IMG/VR virus record: IMGVR_UViG_3300021082_000007 | Reading direction: 5' to 3' (one strand) | Length of the DNA stretch: 47,921 bases | DNA from: a virus | In this document: piece after piece, positions 1,759-25,948 of the stretch | How the letters are laid out: each line of letters opens with the position of its first letter | How positions within the stretch are numbered: the stretch's first letter is position 1 | Program-made: the position numbers and the translations under genes | The notes under the pieces: generated by a model | Seen by the model: only the letters and a program-made list of their open reading frames with translations | Told to the model about the DNA's origin: nothing | Database searches by the model: none

Positions 1759-1989
1759 ATGTACCACATCTATTGCGACACAATCGAAGCGGACGTTATC
1801 ACGCCGGATTTTAATCACGCGGCGCGGACGTTTCGGCGCCTAATCCGCGATAATCCCGCGGACGTTGTCACATGCGACCGAATCGAGAATCTCGGCGCGG
1901 CCGATACCGCGGACGATATCCTTTCGGGAAACTTCGACGGGCGCCGCGTCCGCGTGATGCACTGTGACCCGGCCCTATACGGCTATTGA
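1759..1989 (+). CDS. Hypothetical protein (76 aa)
   Basis: ATG preceded by aggaaag; its TGA stop lies inside hairpin element copy 1. Confidence 0.65.
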   Translation: MYHIYCDTIEADVITPDFNHAARTFRRLIRDNPADVVTCDRIENLGAADTADDILSGNFDGRRVRVMHCDPALYGY

Positions 1990-2049
1990 TTGCAGTGCAT
2001 GCGGCGCCGAGCTCGGCGCCGCATGAGCGGCAATCACGCCGACAACAGA
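1986..2049 (+). repeat. Hairpin element copy 1 (conserved flanks, 28-bp perfect palindrome core)
   Basis: TTGATTGCAGTG-[CATGCGGCGCCGAGCTCGGCGCCGCATG]-AGCGGCAATCACGCCGACAACAGA. GATTGC and GCAATC can extend the stem across a 4x4 internal loop. Confidence 0.9.
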
Positions 2050-2069
2050 ACATGACAGGAATCAGAACA

Positions 2070-2906
2070 ATGCGCGTTAAGCTTCAATTCAAGGCTATGT
2101 TTTCTATTGATAGCCCAAAGGCAATCAAAGCGGCCAAATTCAACTATCTAAACGCTATCAACTATATGGCGCCGCACAAATCAGGCGATGGCGTCACTAA
2201 TCTGTGCTCGCATGCATCGCCCGCGTGCATATTGCTTTGCCTTGGTCGCGAAAGCGGACAAGCGGCCATGGTATCACACGCGACCGGAACCAATAAGGTG
2301 CGGCAATCCCGCGAACGCAAAGCACGCTATTTCATGACAGAACGCAACGCCTATTGCGTTGAGTTCCTAGTCCATGTTGCGCGTTCTATCCGCAAAGCAA
2401 AACGCAAGCGTATGGCGCTAGCGGTCCGCCCTAATGGCGCAACGGATATTGCATATGAGGGAATCCGTATCTTTGTATCGCCCGAGCTCGCCGCGTATCT
2501 GTCACAGATATCAGGCGAACAAATCACGCCAGGATTGCACACAATCTTTTCCGCTTTCCCCATGGTGCAATATGTCGATTACACAAAGAATCATCTTAGG
2601 TTTAATCGCCAATTGCCCGCTAACTATTCGCTGACATTTAGCCGCTCGGAAAACAATGAAGCGCAAGCTTTAGACTTGCTCGCCCGCGGTCATAATGTTG
2701 CGGTCATATTCGCGGGCGCCATGCCGCTGATGTGGAATGGATTCCATGTTATCGATGGCGACCAGCACGATTTGCGGCACCTTGATCCGCATGGCGTCGT
2801 TATTGGCTTGTCGCCAAAAGGCAACAAGGCGAAACGCGAGGGAGTCGCGTTGGGCTTTGTTGTCCCGCCGATCGCGGCGCCCGTTGAATATCAATTAGCG
2901 GCATGA
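2070..2906 (+). CDS. GP88-family-like protein (mycobacteriophage Gp88 type), function unknown
   Basis: NLCSHASPACILLCLGRESGQ ... VRQSRERKARYF ... LAVRPNGATDIAYE fits the Cys cluster and RLN.tSD pattern of Gp88-like proteins. The track start 1986 is a TTG inside the hairpin. ATG 2070 (agga 9 nt upstream) or ATG 2052 is more likely. Confidence 0.6.
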   Translation: MRVKLQFKAMFSIDSPKAIKAAKFNYLNAINYMAPHKSGDGVTNLCSHASPACILLCLGRESGQAAMVSHATGTNKVRQSRERKARYFMTERNAYCVEFLVHVARSIRKAKRKRMALAVRPNGATDIAYEGIRIFVSPELAAYLSQISGEQITPGLHTIFSAFPMVQYVDYTKNHLRFNRQLPANYSLTFSRSENNEAQALDLLARGHNVAVIFAGAMPLMWNGFHVIDGDQHDLRHLDPHGVVIGLSPKGNKAKREGVALGFVVPPIAAPVEYQLAA

Positions 2907-14156: not shown

Positions 14157-14400
14157 CAGCTTTTTCCAGGTCGAGCACCAGCTGGTCTTCGTGGTCGAAA
14201 CGGTTGCGGACCAGGATCTCCACGATCTGCTTGTTCAGTAAGAATAGCTGGTCGCGGTTGACCTGGTAGCGGTTGTGCGTGTCGCCGGTGTTGACGTTGA
14301 GAACTACGGTTTCATTCTGGGGCATGGTCAGATAGACGAACCGCACGTTCGGCATAGTGGGCCTCGTTATCCGTTTGAAGCGTGAAGGATTAACCATCAT
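14146..14400 (-). CDS. Hypothetical protein (84 aa)
   Basis: ATGA coupling to the methyltransferase stop; its 3' end overlaps the convergent SNF2 gene by 11 nt. Confidence 0.55.
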   Translation of the reverse strand: MMVNPSRFKRITRPTMPNVRFVYLTMPQNETVVLNVNTGDTHNRYQVNRDQLFLLNKQIVEILVRNRFDHEDQLVLDLEKAATL

Positions 14401-14987
14401 ACGACTCCATCTCGATGTAGCCACTTCAATTCTGGTGCGCCTGTGAATCCATGTTCAAATACCAACCAACAATAGTCCGACTTGCCACCGCCCACCTTGC
14501 CGCCGGCCGTGATAACGTGGCCTGGCGGCATCGACGGCCGCGGCGTCAGGAGCCACACCCGCCGCAGCGGCATGTCTGCTAGCCACCGGGCGGCATTCAG
14601 TCGAGCCGTTGGTATGATCAACGCGACCTTGCGGTTGGCTAGCGCCAGCGCGTGCAAGGTGAAGCTTTCAAATACGTCAAAGGGCGGGTTCGACACTATG
14701 TTGTCGTGTACGCCTTCGTGGTCGAGGAAATCCTCCAGCGGGTAGCCGTGGTAGGAGTCCGGCCCGCTGCCGCCGCGGTCGACAATATCGGTGCCGTATG
14801 CGTCGAGGCCGGCTTTCAGCGCGGCGACGACGATCCGGCCGAAGCCGCAGGCCGGGTCATAGAGCCTGCCGTGGAAATGCTCCTCTTGGAACAATCGCTC
14901 GCTGACCCAGAACGGCTCGACGTAATGCTCGCTGATGCGGGGATATGCGGGGCTATGCGGGGAAACGTGGGTCCACGGCTGGCTCAT
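14397..14987 (-). CDS. Orphan SAM-dependent DNA methyltransferase (N6-adenine/N4-cytosine NPPF type)
   Basis: Motif I LYDPACGFGRIVVAA and motif IV IVSNPPFD; no adjacent restriction gene. Confidence 0.75.
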   Translation of the reverse strand: MSQPWTHVSPHSPAYPRISEHYVEPFWVSERLFQEEHFHGRLYDPACGFGRIVVAALKAGLDAYGTDIVDRGGSGPDSYHGYPLEDFLDHEGVHDNIVSNPPFDVFESFTLHALALANRKVALIIPTARLNAARWLADMPLRRVWLLTPRPSMPPGHVITAGGKVGGGKSDYCWLVFEHGFTGAPELKWLHRDGVV

Positions 14988-15196
14988 CGCACGTCCTCAT
15001 TCCACTTCCACTTGCCGTCGACCCAATGGCCGTTCACCGGGTCTTTGCACTCAGTGGCGCGGACCTCCCGCGCCGAAGTCCAGCGCATTTCCAGGTCTTT
15101 GGCGTAGGCCAGGGCTTCGGCCTCAGTCTCGCAGCGGATCGCGTTGTCGTACCACTTGGCGTCGTTGTGGACCCGCACCTCCGGTTTCCAGGCCAT
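14984..15196 (-). CDS. Hypothetical protein (70 aa, Trp-rich)
   Basis: Overlap-coupled ORF in the leftward accessory operon. Confidence 0.55.
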   Translation of the reverse strand: MAWKPEVRVHNDAKWYDNAIRCETEAEALAYAKDLEMRWTSAREVRATECKDPVNGHWVDGKWKWNEDVR

Positions 15197-15486
15197 CAGG
15201 CATTCCCCTCGGTTCGCAGGATGTGCATGTGCGCTTTCATGTGCTCGTCTACGTCATGGAATATCCGCCGCATGGCGACGGCCAGCTCCGGCAAGCCGCG
15301 GCCGGCAGCCTTGTCGATGCTGGTGAAGGTCTGCGCGGCGCCCATGAAGAACGTCATCTCCATGGAGTGGATCTGGTCTTCGTCGGTCCCGGCCTCGCGC
15401 AATTTGACGACCATGTCGTCCCAGGTTTCCCGCAACGTATTGTTGGGGTCGACGTTGCCCCTGATGACGACGCTGACAGCGGTCAT
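15196..15486 (-). CDS. Hypothetical protein (96 aa)
   Basis: Overlap-coupled ORF; no motif. Confidence 0.55.
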   Translation of the reverse strand: MTAVSVVIRGNVDPNNTLRETWDDMVVKLREAGTDEDQIHSMEMTFFMGAAQTFTSIDKAAGRGLPELAVAMRRIFHDVDEHMKAHMHILRTEGNA

Positions 15487-15872
15487 GGCGTTTTCTCCAA
15501 TTGCTTGGCGCCGAGGTCGGCCGCGAGCTCGTTCAATGCCGCCGTGGTCGGGGTCGGCGCATGATCCAGTTCGTGGACCGCGGCGATGTAATCCTCGGCG
15601 CGACGTGTCAATAGACCGATATTAGCCATTTGGGTTGTGAGCTCGACCAGCATCTTGTGCAGCCGCAAGGACTCATGGCGGTAGCGATCGCGTTCCTCGA
15701 CCATCATCTGCACGCGATCGTGCTCGCGGTTGAGATCGATCCGCATCTGACTGATGGTGTTCTGAGCGTTGATCAGGTCTTCGTGCATCTGCGTGACTTT
15801 TGCTAGAGCAGCGACACGATGGTCGTTCTCGACATCGGGCAGCGGGCGCGTCTGTTGACGAGGTGCGTTCAT
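15483..15872 (-). CDS. Hypothetical coiled-coil protein (129 aa)
   Basis: ATG 15872 preceded by gaaagg; heptad-like HEDLINAQNTISQMRIDLNREHDRVQMMVEERDRYRHESLRL. The track start 16025 would overlap the upstream gene. Confidence 0.55.
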   Translation of the reverse strand: MNAPRQQTRPLPDVENDHRVAALAKVTQMHEDLINAQNTISQMRIDLNREHDRVQMMVEERDRYRHESLRLHKMLVELTTQMANIGLLTRRAEDYIAAVHELDHAPTPTTAALNELAADLGAKQLEKTP

Positions 15873-15942
15873 GGTTTTCGCCTTTCTGTTGTTAAGTTGC
15901 TGCGCCGGGTAGAGCACCCGGCGCAGCATGGCCGCGGACGCA

Positions 15943-16173
15943 TTACCTTTTCGCAGCCTTTCGCGGAGCCTTACGCATAGGCCATAGATGATCCGGCGCA
16001 TCGTGACCGATTTCCTCCAGTGCATCCTTGAGCAGCCGGTAAGTGTCTGCGGGAAATTGCTTTCCTGCCCGCCAGTTATAGACGCCGTTTTCCGAAGTGC
16101 CGGTCAGCTCGGCCATGGCTTCGATGCCGCCGAGCGCGTTAATGATGTCTGCGGTGGTGCGGAATGTTGTCAT
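15943..16173 (-). CDS. Cro/YdaS-like helix-turn-helix regulator
   Basis: IINALGGIEAMAELTGTSENGVYNWRAGKQFP has the HTH plus W..G..P layout of Cro/YdaS-type proteins; first gene of the leftward operon, divergent from the moron cassette. Confidence 0.5.
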   Translation of the reverse strand: MTTFRTTADIINALGGIEAMAELTGTSENGVYNWRAGKQFPADTYRLLKDALEEIGHDAPDHLWPMRKAPRKAAKR

Positions 16174-16245
16174 ATCCCACACCTAACTCAACCTTTCTGA
16201 GTAAGCAAGCGTTGCGTCCCAGAATAGTTGAGATATAGTCGGCCG

Positions 16246-16431
16246 ATGGATCCCGAGTTCCAGCTCCGCGAACTGATGCTGATTGACGCCAAGGTGTTTC
16301 GGACGCGCAATCAGATTGCCGATCGCACCGATCCACAGACCAATAAGAAACTGTACAGGTCCAAAGCAAAGACCAAGAAGCCTGCTAAGGTTGAACCGGA
16401 CGACATCCCAACAGAGGAACCACCCAAATGA
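16246..16431 (+). CDS. Hypothetical basic protein (61 aa)
   Basis: ATG 16246 (track start 16228 is a TTG); ATGA coupling to the next gene. Confidence 0.45.
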   Translation: MDPEFQLRELMLIDAKVFRTRNQIADRTDPQTNKKLYRSKAKTKKPAKVEPDDIPTEEPPK

Positions 16432-17198
16432 GCCGCTTAGTCGGCGCCGCCCTGGCGGCGCTTCTATTCACCGTACCTGTGCAAGCCGCGATCGTTAACC
16501 TCGGCCTCGACCCGACGCCGTGGATCACCGACGGCGCGGCGACGATCACGATCTCGCCAACCGCACCCGGTCAGCAAACCACCAACTTACCGTGCCTGAT
16601 CTGCGGGGCGACCCAGCCGCTTCAACCGTCTGGATTCGGCTATAACGATTTCCACAACAACGGCGCCCAGAACACCGTCAGCTACTTTTCCACCGCGACC
16701 GTTCCCGGCGGCGGCGGATCCGGCCTGGCCCAGGATCAGTTCCTGGGGACCACCGGCTACTCCCTGTCGCCTGGGGCTGCATTCCTCGCAGCTGTCGGCG
16801 GCTTCAACGGCTTCTCTGTTGGCTTGGATTCAAATCAAGCAGGCACCGATGCTCAGATTCTGGAGAGTTTTTGGTTCCTCAATCTCACCCAGCACACCGT
16901 CCTGGCCGTGTTCCGGCCGCCGGGTGGCTATGACATCAGTCCGTTAAATAACGGCACCGGATTTCCTGACTACACGTTATCTGGATTATCTCTGGCTGGT
17001 GTCTCAGCTGGGGACCAGGTCATGTTCTTTGCTCGGATCACCAACGCCAACGACGGCCCCGACTCGTTCTTCCTCATCCCGCAAGTCACCGCGGTCCCGC
17101 TCCCCGCGGTCGGCACCGGGCTGCCGGCCTTAGTGGCGGGATTGTTCGGTTTGGTCGGGCTGCACCGGCGCCGCAAGGCGCGACTGCTCGCGGCCTGA
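16428..17198 (+). CDS. Secreted protein with PEP-CTERM/VPLPA-CTERM-type sorting signal (putative exosortase substrate)
   Basis: N-terminal signal peptide MSRLVGAALAALLFTVPVQA-A. The C-terminus is VPLPA-VGTGLPALVAGLFGLVGL-HRRRKAR, that is motif, hydrophobic helix, then Arg/Lys cluster. Confidence 0.7.
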   Translation: MSRLVGAALAALLFTVPVQAAIVNLGLDPTPWITDGAATITISPTAPGQQTTNLPCLICGATQPLQPSGFGYNDFHNNGAQNTVSYFSTATVPGGGGSGLAQDQFLGTTGYSLSPGAAFLAAVGGFNGFSVGLDSNQAGTDAQILESFWFLNLTQHTVLAVFRPPGGYDISPLNNGTGFPDYTLSGLSLAGVSAGDQVMFFARITNANDGPDSFFLIPQVTAVPLPAVGTGLPALVAGLFGLVGLHRRRKARLLAA

Positions 17199-17244
17199 TC
17201 GACCGGTTCCGACGGCGTGCATGTGTAGCGCCGCCGGGGCCAGG

Positions 17245-17288
17245 TTGAAAAATGGGAAAAAATTTTTGGCGGTCTAAACGGTTATGAC
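17245..17288. promoter_or_regulatory. Copy 1 of a conserved ~43-bp A6T5 motif
   Basis: TTGAAAA-n3-GGAAAAAATTTTTGGCGG-n10-TATGAC; copy 2 is at 38401-38442. On the minus strand it reads cTGTCA-n17-AAAAAT. Confidence 0.6.
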
Positions 17289-17514
17289 AGCGGTCCCCAC
17301 AGATAACGATCGCACGCTGGTGATGCATGACCCTGCTGTCGAGCATTGCGAGGATTGCGATAAGCTTGTTGCTGATAGTGACAAGATGCCGGGACCGGAT
17401 GAATGCCATTGCGCACGATGTATCGATTGCCGCGAGCTACTCGATGACGAGGAGCAGCACCTAGGTCATGAGCAATGCTTCGATTGCTTTGTGACGGAGC
17501 ACGATCGGGACTGA
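17284..17514 (+). CDS. Small acidic 8-Cys zinc-ribbon-like protein (76 aa)
   Basis: CEDC ... CHCARCIDC ... (15 aa) ... CFDC; about 30 percent Asp/Glu. Confidence 0.55.
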   Translation: MTAVPTDNDRTLVMHDPAVEHCEDCDKLVADSDKMPGPDECHCARCIDCRELLDDEEQHLGHEQCFDCFVTEHDRD

Positions 17515-17524
17515 CTGTCCGCCT

Positions 17525-20500
17525 TTACCAGCCGCCGGTGCCGCCCATCGGCATCCCACCGCCACCGAAGTCGAAGCCGCCGCCACCGCCCCAATCCAGG
17601 CCGGCACCGATCCCACTGCCGCCGCCCCAACCCCAGCCTTGCAGGATCTGCGGCGCGATCGGCGACAGGCCCATGCCGGCGCCGCCGCCGCGCGCCGCGG
17701 TCTGGTCGATCAGCGGCGACGAGAACGTGGCGTTTTCAATGGGCGGCAACATTCCCGCCAAGGCAATGCTGCCGCCCTGGCTGCCAGGCGCGCCTGGCGC
17801 CACCGCGCCGGTCGGGATCGAGCTTAATCCCGGCGGCGCAAGCGACAGCCCGCCGGCGGTACCACCGGCGGGCGTGGCAGGCTGCGCCGGAAGCACCGGC
17901 ATGGCATCGGCCGGCGGGGCTGGCATATCCGGCGCAACCCGGCTTTCGTCTTTGTAGGCATCGGTCAGCGCCTTGGCCATCTCCGGCGTCATCGCGCCCT
18001 GCTGGCCCTTCGGCTGCTCGCTTATTCGCGCCGCTTCGTCCTGGTGTAGCTTCTCCGCGGCGGCGCCGGCCTGCTCGACCGTGTCGAATTTGCCCAGGTG
18101 CTTGCCGGTTTCTACATAACGCTGACGCGCCTCCGCGTCAGACATTACGCGGCCGCCCTCGGCCGGCACGGTAGGAATGTTGACCTCCTTGCCTTGGTCC
18201 TCCACGCCGATCGTTCGCACGGTCGAGATTGAGCCGTCATCGTTCTGCACGGGCTTCTGCTCAAGCGGATCCAACGTCGCTGCATTGGGGTCGACCGGCG
18301 CGGCTGCCTCGGCCGGCGCCGGCGCCAGCCGTTTGCTGGCACTGAAGTCGGTGGCGCCCGAGGTGCCGAGGTCACTGCGCTTGCCGGGTGGCGCGGCCTT
18401 CGGCGGGCCTTCCTTGTAGGCGGCGTCGAGCTGCTGCTGGGTAACCCCCATCTTGCCGAGGTAGGGTTTCACCCCTTCGGCCACCCGGCTGCCGATCAGC
18501 GGCATGTCCATCGCCTGGCGCAGCGTGCGATCGCCGAGGTAGGTCTGCGCCTGACTGACCTGGTCGGGCGTGCCGCCGCGCTTCACCAGGTCGACCACCT
18601 TGGTATCGAGCAGCGCGTGCGCTGGATTAACCGGAGCAGCGGCTGGCGGCGCCGGCTTGGCGACCGGCTGTGGCGCAGGGGGCGTCGCTGCCGGGGGCTT
18701 AACCGGCGCCGCGGCTGCCGCGGGCGCAGGTGGGAGTGGTGCTGCTACCGCAGGCGCTGCCGGAGCCGCCGGTGCGGCGGCCGGCTCCGGTTCGAGTGGC
18801 TCTTCGCCCGACGGCCCGAGCTGGGCCGCTGCCGGCGGCGATGCGGGCGCCGCCGGTGCCGCGGCCTGTGGCGGTGGTGCGGCCGCTTTGGGGGCAGGAT
18901 CCGCAGCAGCCGCCGGTGCAGGCGGTGGACTAGCTTCCTTTGTAACCTGATTCCCTTGCGGCGTAAGCGCCGCCGCCGGCTTCACCCCCTGGTCTTTCTT
19001 CAGCTCGGCCGCAGTGGATGCCTGCCATTTCTGATTGTTCGCCACCGTGGTGCCGCCGTGCACCTCCGGGTTCTTGTTCTTGATGAAGAAGTCATTGCCG
19101 CCGACCGTGCCGACGTGCGTGGAGTTGGTCTTGGAGCTCGCCGCGGTCTTGCCGCTGCCGAAGTCCGTTGCGAGGTTGGAGTAATTGGTCCCCTTCTTGT
19201 GCGCCTCATCGATCTCGGCGTGCAGCTGGGCGCGGAACTGCGGATCGGTTTGGATCCGCTTCAGCGCGGCGTCGTACTTGGGCCGCATCGCCGGGTCGTT
19301 CATCGCCTGGTAGTATTTGGGGTCGATGATATCGGTGACCGGCCGGCCGTTGGCGATGATGCGATTCGCCCCCGCCTCATGTACGGCGATGCGGCCCTCC
19401 CTAGAATTGTTATCTTCGGTGTAGGCCGCCGCCGCCATCTGGTCTTTGGCGGTGGGGTTCTTATCGAAGAAGTTAGCGACCGGCCGGCGTTGCTCGACCA
19501 AGGTCCGGTTGCCTGGCTGCGCCGCGGGCGCCGCGGCTGCGGGCGCGGCCAAGGTCGGCCGGCCTGGCGCCATCGGCGGCTTGCCTGCCAGGCCCCCGCC
19601 CGGGACCAGGCCGGGGAACAGCTTGGCTTGGCCTGGCGACAAGCCATCCTTCCAGGATCCGCCGGCCATGCCGATACGATCGCCGGCGAAGTCATGGTGC
19701 ATCTGGTCGAGGCTGCCGTAGACCGATTGGTCGCCGGAGAAGTAGCCGCCCCAGCGATGCAGCTTGGCCAGGTCGGGGTGGTTGGCTTCCAGGTACTGAT
19801 GGAATCCATTCGCGTAGTCCTGGTACGCCTTGAACGTCTTGGGGTCGTTGGTCCGGTAGTTCTCCAGCGCCTTGCCGGTCGATTTATCGATCAGCTGCAT
19901 GTCGAAGGCGTTGCCGCGGCCGTGCTCGCGGGGATCGCCCTCGCGCTTGCCCGAGGTGAACTGCACCGTGTGGGTGGCGTCCGGCCGACTGTTGTAGACC
20001 TGCGCCCATTCCTTGGCGGCCAGTGCCACCTTGGGGTCGACGCCGGTCAAGTCGTTGGCTTTGGCCAGCGGCACGTTGCCGGACAGTCTGTTGCGGTTGG
20101 CGCCCGGGGCCGGCGGCGTGCCTGGTGCTGCTGGAGTGCCACCGCCGACCGGCGGCTTGTTCTTCTCCTGTTGCAGCAGCCGGTTGAGTGCCTTGTCTTT
20201 GGCGCTCGGCATGGCGCCGAGCAAGGCTGCGCCGATATCGTCGCCGCCGTCAAAGCGGTTGGGCGGCAGGGACGCAACCTTGCCCATCAGCTGCTGCACC
20301 TGGAGTGGCTTCTGCTCATCGACGCGGATGTTCTTGGCGCCCGGGCCTTTAACCAGGCCCTCCAGCAATTGCGTCATCTGGCTGGGCGGCGTGCCGGGTG
20401 GCACCACGCCGAGGTTGACCCCCAACGCATGCAGCATCGAGGTGGTGTCGGCGCCGAGCAGCGGCGTCTTGCCGGCAATCATTGCCTGCTTCGACTTCTC

Positions 20501-20533
20501 CCGCTCCAAGGCCATCTCGTCCATGTAGGCCAT
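17525..20533 (-). CDS. Giant internal-virion/ejection-like protein with LAS (M15-type) peptidase-like domain
   Basis: 1002 aa; last gene of the late block, in the T7 gp16 position. FTSGKREGDPREHGRGNAFDM ... WGGYF ... LDQMHHDF resembles SxHxxGxAxD / HxD zinc DD- or LD-peptidases. It also has a ~100-aa Pro/Ala linker and a Gly/Trp-rich C-terminus. Confidence 0.5.
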   Translation of the reverse strand: MAYMDEMALEREKSKQAMIAGKTPLLGADTTSMLHALGVNLGVVPPGTPPSQMTQLLEGLVKGPGAKNIRVDEQKPLQVQQLMGKVASLPPNRFDGGDDIGAALLGAMPSAKDKALNRLLQQEKNKPPVGGGTPAAPGTPPAPGANRNRLSGNVPLAKANDLTGVDPKVALAAKEWAQVYNSRPDATHTVQFTSGKREGDPREHGRGNAFDMQLIDKSTGKALENYRTNDPKTFKAYQDYANGFHQYLEANHPDLAKLHRWGGYFSGDQSVYGSLDQMHHDFAGDRIGMAGGSWKDGLSPGQAKLFPGLVPGGGLAGKPPMAPGRPTLAAPAAAAPAAQPGNRTLVEQRRPVANFFDKNPTAKDQMAAAAYTEDNNSREGRIAVHEAGANRIIANGRPVTDIIDPKYYQAMNDPAMRPKYDAALKRIQTDPQFRAQLHAEIDEAHKKGTNYSNLATDFGSGKTAASSKTNSTHVGTVGGNDFFIKNKNPEVHGGTTVANNQKWQASTAAELKKDQGVKPAAALTPQGNQVTKEASPPPAPAAAADPAPKAAAPPPQAAAPAAPASPPAAAQLGPSGEEPLEPEPAAAPAAPAAPAVAAPLPPAPAAAAAPVKPPAATPPAPQPVAKPAPPAAAPVNPAHALLDTKVVDLVKRGGTPDQVSQAQTYLGDRTLRQAMDMPLIGSRVAEGVKPYLGKMGVTQQQLDAAYKEGPPKAAPPGKRSDLGTSGATDFSASKRLAPAPAEAAAPVDPNAATLDPLEQKPVQNDDGSISTVRTIGVEDQGKEVNIPTVPAEGGRVMSDAEARQRYVETGKHLGKFDTVEQAGAAAEKLHQDEAARISEQPKGQQGAMTPEMAKALTDAYKDESRVAPDMPAPPADAMPVLPAQPATPAGGTAGGLSLAPPGLSSIPTGAVAPGAPGSQGGSIALAGMLPPIENATFSSPLIDQTAARGGGAGMGLSPIAPQILQGWGWGGGSGIGAGLDWGGGGGFDFGGGGMPMGGTGGW

Positions 20534-22863
20534 TAAGGCACCGTGATCCGCAGTGGCGCGCGTTGCGGCTGCTGCGCCGATTGGGCGGCCGTCATCGCCG
20601 CCGCCAGTTCGTTGATGCCGCTAGGCGACGGCCCCTGGGACAGGGCGTTGCGCGCGGTCGGCCCCTCCAATACGCCGGCGCGCCGAGCGCGGAGGTCGGA
20701 TGGCGCCAGCATGCCGACGACGCGGCCGAGCACGGCGCCGAGCGGCCCGAGGTAATGCCCGCCGAGCTGCGCCAGGGCTTCGCTGCCGAGCACCTTGTTG
20801 GCAACCGAGTTGCCCTGCCCGCCGATGGACCGGGTCAAGCCAGCCTGGCTGGTCGGCACGTTGAGCCGCGTGGCCAGGGCAACCTGGTCGGATACGTTGG
20901 GCAGCTGGTCACCCAGTATGGTCGCTCGCGAGTCCGGGTGCATGCCGGACTTGCCGGCGCCGGTCCAGGCATTGGCGAAGTTGGCAGGCCCGCGGGCGCC
21001 GCCTTGCGGATTGGTCTGCGGACTGTTGATGGTTTCGTTGCCGATCAGGCGCATGAGATCGCCGAAGATCTCACCGACACCGGGATGCCCGGTGGCTTCC
21101 AGGATACCTGGGACGTTCGGATCCTTCCGACCGCGACTGTTCAGGTAGTCGAACGCGGCGGACGGGTTCTCTTTGATGTAGTTCAGCAGCGTGTGGTAGT
21201 CGCCGGGTAGCCCGCCAGGTGTGGTGGGCGTTTCCCGCATGATGTCGCGAGTGGCGTTCTGGGTGGTATTGAAGTCGCGCGGGTCGACGCCGGCACGCTG
21301 GGCTGCCTCGCGCATGACCTGGGTGGTCGGCTCATAGAGCGCACTGACCGGCGGCATCCGGCCGCCTGCCGGGGTGTCGACCGAGCGGCCGAGCTCGGTG
21401 CGGAAGCCGGCGACATCGCCGTAAGGTGCCACCTGCGTGGTCGGCCCCATCGGCGGGCCGCCGTTGTGGCCAATGCCAGGCGATTGCACCGGCACCTGCA
21501 TCGGCTGGCCGCTGGCGTCACGGCTGGCCAATGGATTCAGTTGATCAGTAACCCGGAAGTCGATCGCGGCTCGTTCGGTCGGGCCGATCCTGGCGTTAGG
21601 GTCGGTCATCATGCCGTAGCCGCGTTCCTGGATCGGCGCCAGGTGCGTCGGCGTGTCCTGCGGGATCCTGGCGTTGAGGTTTGTTTGCCGCTGGTCGCTG
21701 ACGCCGCGCAGTGCCTCGGCGCTTTCGCGGGCGGCGGTATTGATCTTCTCGCCGATCGTTCCGGCGTTCGGTTGCACGTCGACGGCGCCGCGCGCCGCGG
21801 CCGATGCATCGTAGGCCGCGCCGATCTGGTTGCGGGCGTTGGTGCGGGCTTCCTGGATCACATCCGCGCTGCCTGGCTGGCCGGAAAGCGTCTGCTCGCG
21901 GCGCAGGATTCTGTCGTTGCCGAGCATGGCCGCGGTCGGCGTGACGCCCTGGCGCCGCGCCATGTCGGCGATCTGCGGCGCGTCGGGCCTGGCATCGCTG
22001 GCATACCATTGGTGGATCAGCGACCGACCAGCGTTCGGTAACGTGTGCGCGGTGCCGCCGAGCGCGGAGCCGAGCCAGGCGCCGGTTTCGCGGTCGCCCA
22101 GATACTTCTCGCCGAGGTAGCCGCCGACATTGCCGCCGAGCTCGCCGCCTATCGTCGGTGCCACCGTCGGCACGGCCATGCGCATTGCCGTGCTGGCAAC
22201 AGGTACAGCGGCGCCGGTCGTGGCCGCGACATGGCGTGCGGTCTGGAGGGTGCCGGCGGCTGCGCCCGCGCCGCCGCCGAGGAACGCGCTGCCGGCGCCT
22301 TCACCCATCCGCTCATACCAAGGCGCGTCTTCCGGCAGCGCCGGCGTGCCGGAGTTCTCCAGCATCTGCGGCGTGACGTAAGGCAGCTGCGAGTCCGGGC
22401 TGCCGATCGTTCGCGCCGCGGCGTTGTAGCCGCCGATGCCGAAGTCGGTGGCGCCGCCGATCGCGCCGGCCAGGATGCGGCTGGTTCTGTTCTCTACACT
22501 GCGCGGATCCGAGGTCAGGCGCTTGGCCGCCATGATGTCTTCGAGGTTCGGTACGTTTTCGGCGCCCGGCACCGGCTTTGATTCCACCGGCTTGTTGTTC
22601 CACCAATCAGTAATGCCGCGGCTGGCCTCGCCGGCGTCGGCAATGTCTCCCGGCTTCATACCGAAGGCGAGTTTGGCGCGGCCCCACATGTCCTCGCCCC
22701 AGGTCTTGGTCGGCGGCAGCGGCGCGTTGGTGCCTTTCTGCTGCTGCCGCAGCGCCTTGTAGGCGCTCGCCATGTGGACGTAGTCGGATGTGCCTTCCTG
22801 GTCCGGGTTCTCTTTCAGCCAGCCCGCTATGTCTTCGACTGTGGGTTCGGCCATGTCACTCAA
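20533..22863 (-). CDS. Internal-virion-like protein (776 aa)
   Basis: Size and position analogous to T7 gp15; several Gly-zipper-like hydrophobic stretches (AFLGGGAGAAAGTL, IGGELGGNVGGYLG). Confidence 0.45.
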   Translation of the reverse strand: MSDMAEPTVEDIAGWLKENPDQEGTSDYVHMASAYKALRQQQKGTNAPLPPTKTWGEDMWGRAKLAFGMKPGDIADAGEASRGITDWWNNKPVESKPVPGAENVPNLEDIMAAKRLTSDPRSVENRTSRILAGAIGGATDFGIGGYNAAARTIGSPDSQLPYVTPQMLENSGTPALPEDAPWYERMGEGAGSAFLGGGAGAAAGTLQTARHVAATTGAAVPVASTAMRMAVPTVAPTIGGELGGNVGGYLGEKYLGDRETGAWLGSALGGTAHTLPNAGRSLIHQWYASDARPDAPQIADMARRQGVTPTAAMLGNDRILRREQTLSGQPGSADVIQEARTNARNQIGAAYDASAAARGAVDVQPNAGTIGEKINTAARESAEALRGVSDQRQTNLNARIPQDTPTHLAPIQERGYGMMTDPNARIGPTERAAIDFRVTDQLNPLASRDASGQPMQVPVQSPGIGHNGGPPMGPTTQVAPYGDVAGFRTELGRSVDTPAGGRMPPVSALYEPTTQVMREAAQRAGVDPRDFNTTQNATRDIMRETPTTPGGLPGDYHTLLNYIKENPSAAFDYLNSRGRKDPNVPGILEATGHPGVGEIFGDLMRLIGNETINSPQTNPQGGARGPANFANAWTGAGKSGMHPDSRATILGDQLPNVSDQVALATRLNVPTSQAGLTRSIGGQGNSVANKVLGSEALAQLGGHYLGPLGAVLGRVVGMLAPSDLRARRAGVLEGPTARNALSQGPSPSGINELAAAMTAAQSAQQPQRAPLRITVP

Positions 22864-24607
22864 CCCCTAGTTTGCGATCGAGGTCGTTGATGTCTTCTGC
22901 CGACACCGCCGGCCTGGTCGCTGCGGGCGCGGTTGTGGTAGCGCCGGGCGCAGCCGCAGCTCGCCGCGGCGATCGGCCTTCGGCGTCGACCCGGCCGCTT
23001 TTGGTGCTTACATAGCTGGCGTCAGGCGGCACCAACGTCGCCATCTCCGGCAGGTACTTCTTGTAGTCGACATTGCGGTCGGTCAGCTGCACGGCGTGCT
23101 GCTCGTAGATCGGCTTTATGTTGGCGTTGTGTTTCGACATGGTGGCGTGAACCATGTTCCACAGCATCATCCGCACCTCGGGCGGCAGCCTGGATTCGCC
23201 CTTCAGCCCCTGCATCATGCTGATGAACTTATCCATCACGCCGCCAGTCTTGCGGACGTTCTCGACTTCGCCTTCGCGGACCACTGACGGCGGATCCAAG
23301 ATCTTCGCCGCGCCGACGATCATCGCCAGGTCGGAGCTTTGATTGTTGAATGGCACGTTGCCCATGAAGGTCGCGTAGCCGGTCTTGGCGTTCTCGTAGG
23401 CGTGAACCACCGGCGACTTCAGGTAGCTGTCGACCACCGGCCGCGGGTTGCCGGCGCCGGTGCGCGTTATCGCGCCGACCAACGGCCGCGGCTCCGGGAC
23501 CGGCAGGCCGGTCGAGGCGCCGCCGCCGGTCACTGGCGCGGGCGCCGCAGCGGCCGCAGCAGGTGCCGCGCCCGCGGCCGCGGGCGCCGCGCCGGTGCCG
23601 GTCGTCGCAGTGGTCCGCGACATCGGCACGTTGTCGATCTTGTCGAGCAGATCGAACAGTCGCGCGGCCGGTCCTGTCTGCGGCGGCACGATGTCGTAGT
23701 GCGGTTGCGAGGACTCCTGTTCGGTTTCCGGGTCTTTGAAGAACCTGATCTTCTTCTGCCAGCCGGCATCACGGGTAGCCCGAGCGGCGTTCAGCTCGTC
23801 GTTCGATAGCGGCAGCCCAGCGTCGACCTTGGCCAGGATCTTGGTCGCCATCTGGTTGAAGTTGTTCTGCGCGATCGGCGCGGACTCGATCGGGTTCGGC
23901 TGCGCCATCGATGCCGCGCCAGACTCCAAGGCAGTCTCGCCCTTGGCCGGGTCGTACATGGACGCGATCGGTCTTCCTTCCAGCGTGGTCCGGCCGTCGC
24001 GGGTGGCGAACTGCCGGCCGGTCGATTGGCCATTCTGGTAGATCGTGAAGTTGGTCGCGCCTTGCAGCTTGGTTTCATCCGAAGTCGGAAATCGGCCGGT
24101 GGTGCCGAATTGCAGCCTGGCGCGGTCGCGCGGATCTCGCGGCACGCCGGCGGCGGCAACCTCGGCCTGGGCGGCCTGCGCCGGCGCGGTCGCTGGATCC
24201 TTCAAGATCGCCGCCCTGCCGCTGGTGACCATGAGGTTGCGGCGCGCTTGTGCTGCTGCCAATGCCCGCGGGTCGATGAACGATTCCTGCACGGTGGTCG
24301 GCGGCAGGAAGATCTCGCCTGGCTGTGTGGTCGGGTCGGCTGGGTTGACCGGCCCCTGGTTTTCGACGGTTACGTCGCGGAAGCTTGGATCCACCTTGGC
24401 TGCGGGCGTGGCGGCATCGAGCTGGCCGGCAGCATCCTTGCCGGTGTTCCACATCTCGGTGTCGCGGGCGCGCTTCTCCCGCGCGGCCAGTATGGACTCG
24501 ACCGTGGCGGCGTTGTGCAGCGCCGTGCCGGTCGAGCCCTGGATGCTCTTGACCAGGCCAGACGCCCAGTTACCCCAGAATGGATCCTGTACGAACTCGG
24601 AGCCCAT
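22856..24607 (-). CDS. Internal-virion-like / structural protein (583 aa)
   Basis: Large late ORF with an Ala/Pro low-complexity segment; function assigned by position only. Confidence 0.4.
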   Translation of the reverse strand: MGSEFVQDPFWGNWASGLVKSIQGSTGTALHNAATVESILAAREKRARDTEMWNTGKDAAGQLDAATPAAKVDPSFRDVTVENQGPVNPADPTTQPGEIFLPPTTVQESFIDPRALAAAQARRNLMVTSGRAAILKDPATAPAQAAQAEVAAAGVPRDPRDRARLQFGTTGRFPTSDETKLQGATNFTIYQNGQSTGRQFATRDGRTTLEGRPIASMYDPAKGETALESGAASMAQPNPIESAPIAQNNFNQMATKILAKVDAGLPLSNDELNAARATRDAGWQKKIRFFKDPETEQESSQPHYDIVPPQTGPAARLFDLLDKIDNVPMSRTTATTGTGAAPAAAGAAPAAAAAAPAPVTGGGASTGLPVPEPRPLVGAITRTGAGNPRPVVDSYLKSPVVHAYENAKTGYATFMGNVPFNNQSSDLAMIVGAAKILDPPSVVREGEVENVRKTGGVMDKFISMMQGLKGESRLPPEVRMMLWNMVHATMSKHNANIKPIYEQHAVQLTDRNVDYKKYLPEMATLVPPDASYVSTKSGRVDAEGRSPRRAAAAPGATTTAPAATRPAVSAEDINDLDRKLGVE

Positions 24608-24616
24608 GACGCACCC

Positions 24617-25303
24617 TTATATGCTCGCGGCCAGCGCGTTACCGAGGCCCTGGCCGGCCACGCCGGCGCCGGCTTGCGCTAACCCGCCCGCGGCGCCGCC
24701 ACCGTACTGTGTGATCTTGATCGGCTCGACCGCCTTGGCGACGTTGTAGGCGCTAAGGATGCCGCTGCGCTCGTTGCCGGCCAGGCGAATGTCTTGTCCC
24801 GCCGTATTAAGAATTGTATTGGCGCGGTTGGTCAGGCCGTACTGCGAGCCGCCATATGATTGGACATCGGCCAGCGCGGCGATGCGCTTGCGGGCTTCGA
24901 TCGCGGCCTGCTGGATGTGTCCCTGGATCGCAGTCTTCATCTCCTCGGAGCCATGCTGCTGGCCCGAGAACATCGCCCCGGCGATCGCGTTCGGATCGCC
25001 CTCGGCCTGGGCGGCGACTTCCTCCGGCGTCAGCGAGGTCTTCAGCCGTTCGGATTCACTCTCCTGCGCCGCGGTCTGCTTCTTGGCGCCGAGCTCCTCC
25101 AGCGCGCCCTCGCGGCCGGCTTCGGCATTGCGCCGCAGATCCTCGTCGCGTTGCAGATAGTTCTGCGACTGCCGGCGCTGGTAGGCGACCCACTGATCGT
25201 TCGCCGACTGCTGCTTGCTCGCCATGTCTTGCTGCTGCTGCATGTTGTACAGCGACATGCCGATCGAGAAGCCCAGGCCAATGATCGAGATCGGGTCACA
25301 CAT
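24617..25303 (-). CDS. Structural-module protein with N-terminal hydrophobic segment (228 aa)
   Basis: MCDPISIIGLGFSIGMSLY, then Gln/Glu-rich helical sequence. Confidence 0.45.
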   Translation of the reverse strand: MCDPISIIGLGFSIGMSLYNMQQQQDMASKQQSANDQWVAYQRRQSQNYLQRDEDLRRNAEAGREGALEELGAKKQTAAQESESERLKTSLTPEEVAAQAEGDPNAIAGAMFSGQQHGSEEMKTAIQGHIQQAAIEARKRIAALADVQSYGGSQYGLTNRANTILNTAGQDIRLAGNERSGILSAYNVAKAVEPIKITQYGGGAAGGLAQAGAGVAGQGLGNALAASI

Positions 25304-25306
25304 GGG

Positions 25307-25948
25307 TTAGCTCGTTACGGTTCCAGATCCACTCTCGCGGCCGGTCCTGGCGTTGAGCTGACGCTGGGCTTCGGCCTGGCCGGTCACTGCCGGGATGGCC
25401 GAGCCCAGGCCGATCGCAATCGGCTTGAACATATCGCCAAGCGCGGCGACGTTCGGCGTCTGCAACTGCGCGTTCGCCGCAGAGGTCGCCGCAGTGTTCG
25501 CCGCGACCGTCGGGTCTTCGGTGGCGTACAGCTGGTTGTAGGCTTGCTGCTGTTGCGCGGCGATGCTCTTGCGCAGGTCCGACGTGTCGGTGTCGGCCTT
25601 GGCGCGCAGCCCTGCTTCGTTCACTGCCTGCTGATCGGTCAGCTTGCCTTGCACGAAGCCGGCGGCACCCGATCGTAACAATCCAGCGCGTGCGAGATCC
25701 GCTTCGGCCGTGCGCTTGGCTTCGCCGTACTGCTTCTGCAACTGCGGCAGCGTGTAGTCCAGCTCGGCTTGCTGGTACTTGTTGTAGAACGGGTCGCCGA
25801 AGTTATCGTTGCCGAAGATGCTATCGATCGCACTCTTGCCTTGGTTGAGCCGTGCCTGGCGCGCGTTCTCTTTGTCGCGGGCTTCCTGGGCCTGCTGCAT
25901 CTCGAACTGCACCATTTGGTTGTTCGATGGTCCGCTTTTGCCACCCAT
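25307..25948 (-). CDS. Structural-module protein, MGGK N-terminus (213 aa)
   Basis: Starts MGGKSGPS; Gln/Ala-rich helical. Confidence 0.45.
   Translation of the reverse strand: MGGKSGPSNNQMVQFEMQQAQEARDKENARQARLNQGKSAIDSIFGNDNFGDPFYNKYQQAELDYTLPQLQKQYGEAKRTAEADLARAGLLRSGAAGFVQGKLTDQQAVNEAGLRAKADTDTSDLRKSIAAQQQQAYNQLYATEDPTVAANTAATSAANAQLQTPNVAALGDMFKPIAIGLGSAIPAVTGQAEAQRQLNARTGRESGSGTVTS

Follow-up and report, generated by a model that had tools for sequence, protein, structure and literature searches.

Why would a phage carry a gene for a secreted protein that ends in what looks like a bacterial sorting signal, and whose machinery would read that signal? The question is raised by a stretch of viral DNA of 47,921 nucleotides (IMG/VR virus record IMGVR_UViG_3300021082_000007; "the window" below means this whole stretch), in which positions 16428..17198 on the + strand, stop codon included, encode a 256-residue secreted cargo protein that we call FAM, a name we also use for its family. 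An original prediction had filed this protein as a member of the PEP-CTERM family of exosortase-dependent sorting signals, specifically its VPLPA variant. Our analysis indicates that FAM is probably a phage accessory cargo sorted to the envelope or extracellular polysaccharide (EPS) by a host exosortase-family enzyme, through a motif of a different class, VPxPxxGxGxPxL, and that it would decorate or remodel the host surface. The broader idea of exosortase-type sorting is supported, at the level of sequence comparison, by the swapping of its tail with curated signals, by modular use of such tails on unrelated host proteins and by their adjacency to an exosortase-family gene.

The open reading frame (ORF) is present exactly as predicted. 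It begins with ATG, shows a Shine-Dalgarno-like site (AGAGGA) ~10 nt 5' of the start on inspection of the sequence, and its product is called in identical copy on 8 metagenomic contigs. By heuristics, the N-terminus (MSRLVGAALAALLFTVPVQA, followed by AIV) is a Sec-type signal peptide (aa 1-20, 16428..16487, + strand as for all parts of the gene) with 1 basic residue, a hydrophobic core of Kyte-Doolittle (KD) value 2.6 over 11 residues and V-Q-A at positions -3 to -1, giving a predicted cleavage between VQA and A; this feature is kept in ~97% of homologues. The mature domain (aa 21-222, 16488..17093) was delimited with a 55-sequence alignment and an AlphaFold2 model that used the alignment (mean pLDDT 84.9, pTM 0.77), in which a beta-sandwich is followed by a C-terminal helix at residues 231-255. 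The motifs NLPCxIC, LESFWFLN, NGTGFPDYT and NDGPDSFF are invariant in the alignment, and the domain is notable for its invariant CxxC pair and nothing else. The C-terminus then reads V223-P-L-P-A227, an uncharged 19-residue stretch from A227 to L245, and H246-RRRKAR. We assign V223-PLPAVGTGL-P233 (17094..17126) as a sorting-tail signature of class VPxPxxGxGxP, on the invariance of Pro224 across the 55 sequences and on a profile of host tails described below. The putatively transmembrane stretch (aa 227-245, 17106..17162) has a KD value of 1.87, compared to 1.25 for the best 19-residue segment inside the mature domain, and is also represented in the modelled helix, while the basic cluster HRRRKAR (aa 246-252, 17163..17183) is a predicted cytoplasmic stop-transfer. 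Among 118 full-length homologues, the N-terminal hydrophobic core was found in 115, a small-x-small site in 116, a C-terminal transmembrane-like stretch in 102 and the basic cluster in 117. The architecture predicted for a sorted secreted protein, with a heuristically called signal peptide at one end and the VPLPA string, 19-residue helix and HRRRKAR cluster at the other, was thus borne out, and because it is conserved in nearly all of these homologues and contains an invariant Pro224, it is not a chance feature.

Does the tail belong to a signal class already described? The whole FAM protein gave no match to NCBIfam, Pfam or PHROG. Since short sorting-signal models can drop out in HMMER filters, the tail was also scanned alone, with cutoffs of 25.35 bits for TIGR03370 (VPLPA-CTERM), 16 for TIGR02595 (PEP-CTERM), 35 for PEPxxWA-CTERM and 20 for MYXO-CTERM. 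The isolated tail reached 9.0 bits on TIGR03370 (E = 1.4), under the cutoff, and gave no match to it in a second scan, TIGR02595 matched neither the whole protein nor the tail, and the tail's matches to MYXO-CTERM (12–14 bits), LAVTG and VPLPA-CTERM were at noise level. The filing of FAM as a PEP-CTERM protein or a VPLPA variant did not survive this hidden Markov model (HMM) check.

The homologues carry other tails. Among the top 120, the sequences split straight after DSFF into discrete tail classes: VPGPxxGAGxP in 67, a VPLPA-like PLPxAVWLFG in 22, the VPLPAVG type in 14 (including FAM of the window), VPLGPAG in 7, PExSTW in 6 and others in 4. PExSTW tails scored above cutoff on PEPxxWA-CTERM (42.7 and 46.0 bits) and PEP-CTERM (28.1 and 29.6 bits), PLPxAVWL tails passed the VPLPA-CTERM cutoff with 32.7–35 bits, and homologue tails reached 19.2–29.6 bits on TIGR02595; VPGP and VPLPAVG tails matched none of the curated models. 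Distant relatives carry canonical VPEPxxLxLLGxGL...RRRR tails, and the 10 that were tested all passed the PEP-CTERM cutoff (20.8–26.3 bits). Differing classes are found on mature domains that are 87–95% identical, as in homologue P0119, whose VPLPA-CTERM tail is above cutoff, and homologue P0111, whose 92.9% identical mature domain ends in a VPLGPAG tail; in 16 of the 120 cases the nearest neighbour was of another class. When anchors are interchanged on a single mature domain, this is accepted as arguing for an enzyme-matched sorting suffix (Haft & Varghese 2011, PMC3237569), and because the FAM tail is swapped with signals that pass curated cutoffs, we read it as a sorting signal. The literal string VPLPA in FAM is a coincidence of a different motif, VPxPxxGxGxPxL.

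If the tail is a host-type signal, bacteria should use it too. A degenerate DNA pattern for PGPxxGAGxPGx...RRR, scanned over species genomes, gave 25 matches, ~20 of which are true C-terminal tails (VPGPIVGAGLPGL...RRRR and then a stop) on secreted proteins of 170–280 aa; the remaining matches, in Gordonia, Modestobacter and others, were discarded as chance in-frame matches. The carriers are complete Bradyrhizobium chromosomes (B. centrosematis LMG 29515 and Bradyrhizobium sp. McL0615), metagenome-assembled genomes (MAGs) of Bradyrhizobium, a Pseudolabrys MAG and uncultured alphaproteobacterial MAGs. Seventeen host tail proteins fall into 14 unrelated mature-domain groups, none akin to FAM, and the suffix is modular within one genome, occurring at least four times in Bradyrhizobium sp. 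McL0615 (loci L095, L110 with two, and L111) and at least twice in B. centrosematis LMG 29515. The neighbours of host tail genes are ordinary chromosomal genes, among them a CzcA efflux pump (904 bits), a two-component system and an ABC ATPase, and at loci L102 and L106 they are EPS genes, encoding a priming glycosylphosphotransferase, a Wza-like exporter and a WcaI-like glycosyltransferase. In L093, L094, L106 and other host loci, third-position GC was ~0.74 in the tail genes compared to ~0.85 in neighbouring core genes, which hints at horizontally acquired islands or quick turnover.

To compare tails directly, an HMM was built from 18 non-phage host tails only. Host tails scored by leave-one-out had a median of 61.1 bits (minimum 39.4); the FAM tail scored 32.7 bits, its shuffles -0.2 +/- 2.3 (maximum 7.3), and VPLPA-type, PEPxxW and VPLGPA tails had medians of 3–6 bits. 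Because the FAM tail, with PLP, GTG and PAL, missed the DNA pattern by which the host tails were collected, this test is not circular for FAM.

A candidate for the enzyme that would read the signal lies beside some of these tails. At L098:1977-2834, a 286-aa protein with ~7 transmembrane segments starts 10 nt after the stop of a tail-bearing gene. Its family has at least 1,040 members of ~285 aa, to many of which JGI gives the name "exosortase/archaeosortase family protein". Residues C193, N236, R239 and H254 are invariant in a 36-sequence alignment, and we equate C193, R239 and H254 with the Cys, Arg and His conserved among exosortases. On long contigs, the gene is accompanied by genes for a ~900-aa TPR protein, Wzz, an AAA_31/CbiA ATPase, a NusG-like protein, an epimerase, glycosyltransferases and asparagine synthase (AsnB), which is the neighbourhood of a classical exosortase/EPS locus. 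In 4 of 5 independent loci (L098, L119, L120 and L121/L122), the enzyme gene adjoins one for a secreted protein that ends in VPGPxAGAGLPGL...RRR or VPAPxxGAGxPGL...RRRR; in L123, no tail protein was found beside the exosortase-family gene. The 286-aa family is thus a well-supported candidate member of the exosortase superfamily. The exosortase-like gene is always followed by one for a conserved protein of 137–178 aa (L098:1538-2005 (-), L119:6860-7324, L120:6914-7327 and L121:7839-8375), with an N-terminal hydrophobic segment and a conserved C-terminal "...CxAERLPWxELG", which may be an unrecognised partner of the sorting system.

If tails must fit a host enzyme, different cargo genes of one phage should carry the same class. 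A regular-expression scan of the viral loci for non-FAM ORFs ending in a Pro motif, a transmembrane stretch and a basic cluster returned six tail-bearing ORFs, representing five different proteins, all with signal peptides, most adjoining FAM, and with mature domains unrelated to it. In every case the tail class of this second cargo was that of FAM in the same phage: VPGP with VPGP in L021 (9511-9996), L063 (10843-11523) and L066 (13911-14576), and PLPA-type with PLPA-type in L079 (9221-9757, -) and L084 (10763-11470). The second cargo proteins of L063 and L084 are homologous (31% over ~200 aa) and differ in their tails, each fitting its own phage; by this homology, we count them as a further family of phage cargo. 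Tail class therefore co-varies between two independent cargo families, as expected if the tail must fit the host machine. The L084 protein and the tail protein encoded at L097 in Pseudolabrys also share weak similarity (31.6% over 95 aa, E = 0.002). Comparison of L097:203-3280 with L056, L068 and L078 showed that the slot just downstream of a shared TerL holds different tail-bearing secreted proteins, and this slot in related (pro)phages looks like an exchangeable cargo slot.

FAM itself appears to be a gene of phages. At least 457 metagenomic homologues of ~245–270 aa were found by homology search, none with a Pfam domain, and a profile search over 1.84 billion representatives returned 389 clusters (168 at E <= 1e-10), nearly all single-domain proteins of 200–265 aa. 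A scan for the two most conserved peptides confirmed 0 relatives among 185,579 bacterial and archaeal GTDB species genomes (one per species) and, in a scan of the same type, relatives in 206 IMG/VR viral contigs; these genome scans use exact peptide or DNA patterns, for which absences are not absolute, and the IMG/VR contigs include proviruses and possibly some misclassified contigs. The expectation that proteins of this kind are rarely associated with viruses is reversed for this family. A tblastn search of FAM against 50,697 deposited phage genomes gave no match.

The genomic contexts that we inspected were all phage and mutually different, with at least six in unrelated phages. In L004 it lies in an early region that also holds methylases, in L005/L006 immediately upstream of genes for Terminase_3, portal, S78 protease and HK97 capsid, and in L112 within a baseplate module of P2-like type, flanked on the same strand by gp25-like and baseplate J genes. 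Its neighbours in L113 are an Acb2/Tad1-type gene, a helicase and DNA polymerase A, and in L114 FAM comes after an Amidase_3 endolysin. In L113 (9598-9834), FAM directly follows the gene for an Acb2/Tad1-hairpin (anti-CBASS/anti-Thoeris) sponge and a TacA1-like gene, and the region is therefore an accessory one concerned with host interaction. Pfam families counted over 102 large ORFs, drawn from 56 non-redundant loci, were typical of phages (RecT 7, Phage_integrase 7, serine recombinases 2, S74 tail-fibre chaperone 6, Amidase_3 4, as well as portals and methylases), and integrases or recombinases were within <=10 kb of FAM in ~9 of 56 other loci, indicating that many FAM carriers are temperate. 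When loci were clustered by single linkage on raw ORFs, 70 of them fell together, an artefact of spurious alternate-frame ORFs in high-GC DNA, and synteny was followed by gene-by-gene tblastn instead. In the window's own lineage (L011, L029 and L040), FAM is syntenic, between the Cro-like gene g79 and a 1002-aa putative virion gene, and diverges faster than its neighbours, with 49% identity in L029 compared to 68–89% for the flanking genes; the L040 copy ends in a PEASTW tail. Copies in L007–L010 are 80% identical to FAM of the window and have no neighbours in common with it. FAM is a mobile, fast-evolving accessory gene. Variation extends to the ends of the protein: the signal peptides of homologues P0013, P0016, P0027, P0045 and P0072 contain a lipobox-like L-[LVI]-S-C, and a minority of members may thus be both lipoproteins and tail-anchored, and in P0085 the tail is replaced by a long basic extension.

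How would such a cargo reach the surface? From its sequence, FAM would be exported by Sec with cleavage of the signal peptide, and the ~200-residue beta-sandwich would be held transiently at the inner membrane by the C-terminal helix and the cytoplasmic Arg/Lys stop-transfer. The comparative evidence suggests that VPxPxxGxGxPxL, at the start of the helix, is recognised by the exosortase-family enzyme of EPS loci in Bradyrhizobium-like Alphaproteobacteria (Hyphomicrobiales). By analogy with PEP-CTERM proteins, the anchor would then be removed and the domain passed to the envelope or EPS layer, where, by the same analogy and that with phage lipoproteins such as T5 Llp, it would most likely block further adsorption (exclusion) or change aggregation. 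Cleavage, final location, biological role and the host of the FAM phage are what we infer here. A wider proposal, which we hold about as likely as not, is that soil phages of Bradyrhizobium-like bacteria carry the phage-restricted FAM clade and at least four other cargo types in exchangeable slots, each with a tail matched to the current host, and that the enzyme for VPxPxxGxGxPxL is the short divergent exosortase of the EPS loci.

Several observations weigh against exosortase sorting of FAM. The FAM tail falls below every curated exosortase-signal model, and the AlphaFold2 model has no significant match in PDB (best E 0.07) or BFVD (best E 0.016), with TM-scores <0.3, so that the fold gives no function; the weak matches, none significant, lean to tail fibres and carbohydrate-binding modules. 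None of the 120 enzyme-family members listed has a precomputed Pfam domain, and the basis for placing the family among exosortases is source names, conserved residues and locus context. To our knowledge, cleavage of any exosortase substrate of the VPxPxxGxGxPxL class has not been demonstrated experimentally. For exosortases in general, the biochemistry has mostly been inferred (Haft 2006, PMC1569441). Some of the host tail proteins are themselves prophage-encoded, one lying beside TerL (L097) and others at a probable prophage edge (L110), and phage cargo may therefore account for part of the host signal. Direct routes to the host of the window phage failed: the window has no tRNA, even its closest cultured relatives lie too far away, and homologues sourced from NCBI belong to bulk metagenome assemblies. 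The prophage-linked tails are informative in another respect: the L097 tail protein lies downstream of a TerL homologous to that upstream of FAM in L056, L068 and L078, and in L110, on the McL0615 chromosome, two tandem tail proteins precede a ParB-methylase, 42–45% identical to those of L082 and L076 over the best-matching ~100 residues, which together provide a weak but direct link of these phage groups to Bradyrhizobium and Pseudolabrys.

The simplest competing account is that FAM is a plain type I membrane protein, its tail a stop-transfer anchor and its domain periplasmic, serving for example in exclusion by blocking injection, with no sorting enzyme involved. A signal peptide followed by a C-terminal transmembrane helix and basic residues is indeed the generic bitopic topology, and the tail's failure to match curated sorting-signal models is what this account would predict. 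A mere anchor, however, needs neither an invariant Pro nor a conserved VPxPxxGxGxP, and would not be expected to swap with PEP-CTERM, PEPxxWA and VPLPA signals between near-identical mature domains, to co-vary in class with a second cargo gene of the same phage, or to recur on 14 unrelated host proteins, some beside an exosortase-family gene. We regard it as unlikely, if worth keeping in view. Far less can be said for genuine membership in VPLPA-CTERM (TIGR03370) or PEP-CTERM (TIGR02595), with handling by the enzyme of those signals, which we rejected on the HMM results and consider very improbable. The literal VPLPA string and the passing scores of some homologue tails speak for it, but FAM has 9.0 bits against the 25.35 needed on TIGR03370 and no TIGR02595 match, and on the host-tail HMM true VPLPA-type tails have a median of 3.0 bits compared to 32.7 for FAM, indicating that the classes are distinct.

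Two further readings, rejected on topology and context, would place FAM in the particle or in lysis. A virion-associated or adsorption protein, such as a baseplate or tail accessory with a carbohydrate-binding beta-sandwich, would account for the L112 gene between gp25-like and baseplate J on the same strand, for the position of FAM against the structural module in the window and for the leaning of the weak fold matches, yet those matches are not significant (E >=0.016, TM-score <0.3), and a cleavable signal peptide with a membrane anchor is unexpected in a tailed-phage virion protein. The gene also occupies widely differing positions in different phages, lying in the early region, behind the endolysin or ahead of the terminase, and the domain is never fused into larger tail proteins, all 389 representatives being ~200–265 aa; we give this reading very little credence. 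Still harder to credit is a lysis component like a unimolecular spanin (u-spanin), which would bridge the periplasm from an outer-membrane signal at its N-terminus to an inner-membrane anchor at its C-terminus. Such a topology bears a superficial resemblance to that of FAM, the L114 gene follows an Amidase_3 endolysin, and the signal peptides of a few homologues contain a lipobox-like L-[LV]-S-C. FAM and most homologues, however, lack the lipobox Cys and have a small-x-small signal peptidase I site instead, the gene is usually not near lysis genes, and at ~250 aa with a globular beta-sandwich the protein is unlike known u-spanins, of which T1 gp11 has ~130 aa.

Sorting of FAM by a host exosortase-family enzyme being our preferred explanation, we turn to the surroundings of the gene. 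The predicted rightward three-gene cassette (16246-17514) between leftward genes is real: up61, FAM and down76 lie on the + strand between minus-strand genes at 14397-16182 and 17525-25948. The 61-aa ORF up61 (16246..16431, +) has a stop that overlaps the FAM start (ATGA), which suggests translational coupling; it is found at the same position in the related phages L011 and L029 (71–74% identity) and has a weak PHROG match only. The third gene, down76 (17284..17514, +, by ORF call), encodes an acidic, Cys-rich, zinc-finger-like protein of 76 aa with several CxxC-like pairs, a weak match to a DksA-like zinc-finger PHROG (E = 0.013) and no Pfam match, and is present only in contigs of its own phage, being absent from the relatives L011 and L029. 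Divergently transcribed from the cassette is g79 (15943..16182, -), a Cro/YdaS-like helix-turn-helix gene by sub-threshold Pfam matches (YdaS_toxin, HTH_17 and P22_Cro, 20–21 bits), homologues of which are near FAM in 14 loci. The 63-bp divergent intergenic region between g79 and the cassette (16183..16245) is, from its position, the presumed promoter region; a consensus scan of the cassette for a sigma-70-like promoter and a terminator found nothing above shuffle expectation. The proposal that this cassette is a moron fits FAM loosely: it has the opposite orientation to its flanks and the same gene occurs in unrelated phage contexts, but its syntenic position is conserved in L011, L029 and L040, no promoter or terminator was found and there is no integrase among the window ORFs scanned.

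The window is that of a phage, encoding DNA polymerase A, a split primase, TerL, portal and tail-fibre proteins; no integrase was seen among the ORFs scanned and there is no tRNA in the window. By TerL, its nearest cultured phages are a Microcystis phage (50%) and a Rhizobium phage (43%). Downstream of the cassette, 17525-20533 (-) encodes the 1002-aa protein, which is Pro/Ala-rich with a Gly-rich C-terminus, has no PHROG or Pfam match and holds "EHGRGNAFDMQ", which on inspection by eye is similar to the SxHxxGxAxD motif found in LAS/M15 peptidoglycan peptidases; the protein could act as a virion-associated lysin or be an internal protein. A 196-aa protein encoded at 14397-14987 (-), 66–68% conserved in L011 and L029, has the "SNPPF" motif typical of N6-adenine/N4-cytosine DNA methyltransferases, and a 306-aa protein at 1986-2906 (+) matches Pfam PF17338 (GP88, 97.5 bits), a phage family of unknown function.

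Exosortase-type sorting as a kind is already known, and the proposed system resembles PEP-CTERM/exosortase sorting (EpsH/XrtA; Haft 2006, PMC1569441; TIGR02595) in its signal peptide and three-part C-terminal signal with a Pro motif, in a modular suffix found on many unrelated, poorly annotated secreted proteins of one genome, in the clustering of its genes with an exosortase-family enzyme in an EPS locus (TPR, Wzz, ATPase, glycosyltransferases, AsnB) and in the distant FAM relatives whose tails pass the PEP-CTERM cutoff. It differs in that VPxPxxGxGxPxL lacks Glu, has its second Pro inside the helix and fails TIGR02595, in that the candidate enzyme belongs to a short (~286 aa) divergent subfamily with no precomputed Pfam match among the members listed, and in that the FAM cargo is phage-encoded. 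VPLPA-CTERM (TIGR03370), found on some FAM members (32.7–35 bits), is likewise alphaproteobacterial, Glu-less and of Pro-rich three-part design, but true VPLPA tails continue A-x-W-L-F/L-G, whereas the FAM tail continues xxGxGxP. Anchor-swapping families (GlyGly-CTERM/LPXTG/PEP-CTERM; PMC3237569) also place alternative suffixes on one mature domain in different genomes; FAM differs from them in swapping among phage genomes, at 87–95% mature-domain identity, and in including a class that has no curated model. PepA (NF033554) is a floc-forming small PEP-CTERM beta-sandwich protein (Gao et al. 2018, as cited in PMC12642866). Like FAM, it has a secreted single domain of ~200–260 aa followed directly by the sorting tail, and sub-threshold alignments of distant FAM relatives reach its mature region, but the scores are <=38 bits against a cutoff of 80, FAM of the window does not match, and homology of the mature domains is putative at most.

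Phages are known to place proteins on the host surface by other routes. T5 Llp and the Cor proteins of phi80 and N15 are phage lipoproteins that use the Lol pathway and mask receptors, and SasX of S. aureus is a prophage-encoded LPXTG protein handled by sortase A. As proposed for FAM, the phage in these cases supplies a cargo with a host-type signal and host machinery brings it to the surface, altering adsorption or colonisation. FAM differs in its proposed exosortase-type pathway and in its probable hosts, soil Alphaproteobacteria, there is no sequence or fold relationship, and its function is proposed by analogy only. In searches over 8 million papers, we found no account of a phage-borne PEP-CTERM-type family, the VPxPxxGxGxPxL motif or a matching exosortase subfamily, apart from one brief mention that a Dehalococcoides mobile element has a PEP-CTERM domain. 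What is new is a cargo clade found only on viral contigs, together with a putative signal class that curated signal models do not recognise and its candidate cognate enzyme, and the apparent swapping of tails and their co-variation within single phages among phage cargo genes.

Exosortase/PEP-CTERM sorting is widespread in environmental bacteria, yet almost all of it is bioinformatic inference, with cleavage chemistry, acceptor and cargo destination poorly known. FAM is a compact and abundant cargo with tails swapped over short evolutionary distances, and so offers a natural experiment on the specificity of signal and enzyme as well as a tractable model substrate. The signal class and candidate exosortase subfamily are exposed in Bradyrhizobium-type bacteria, which are agriculturally important and whose surface polysaccharides and proteins bear on symbiosis and phage adsorption. 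Exosortase-type sorting would be the third host sorting route that phages appear to exploit for surface change, after lipoprotein/Lol and LPXTG/sortase, and the tail class may help to predict the hosts of uncultured soil viruses. If phages do carry cargo slots with host-matched tails, they would use exosortase sorting systematically and serve as useful reporters of it, and the tail class could mark the host.

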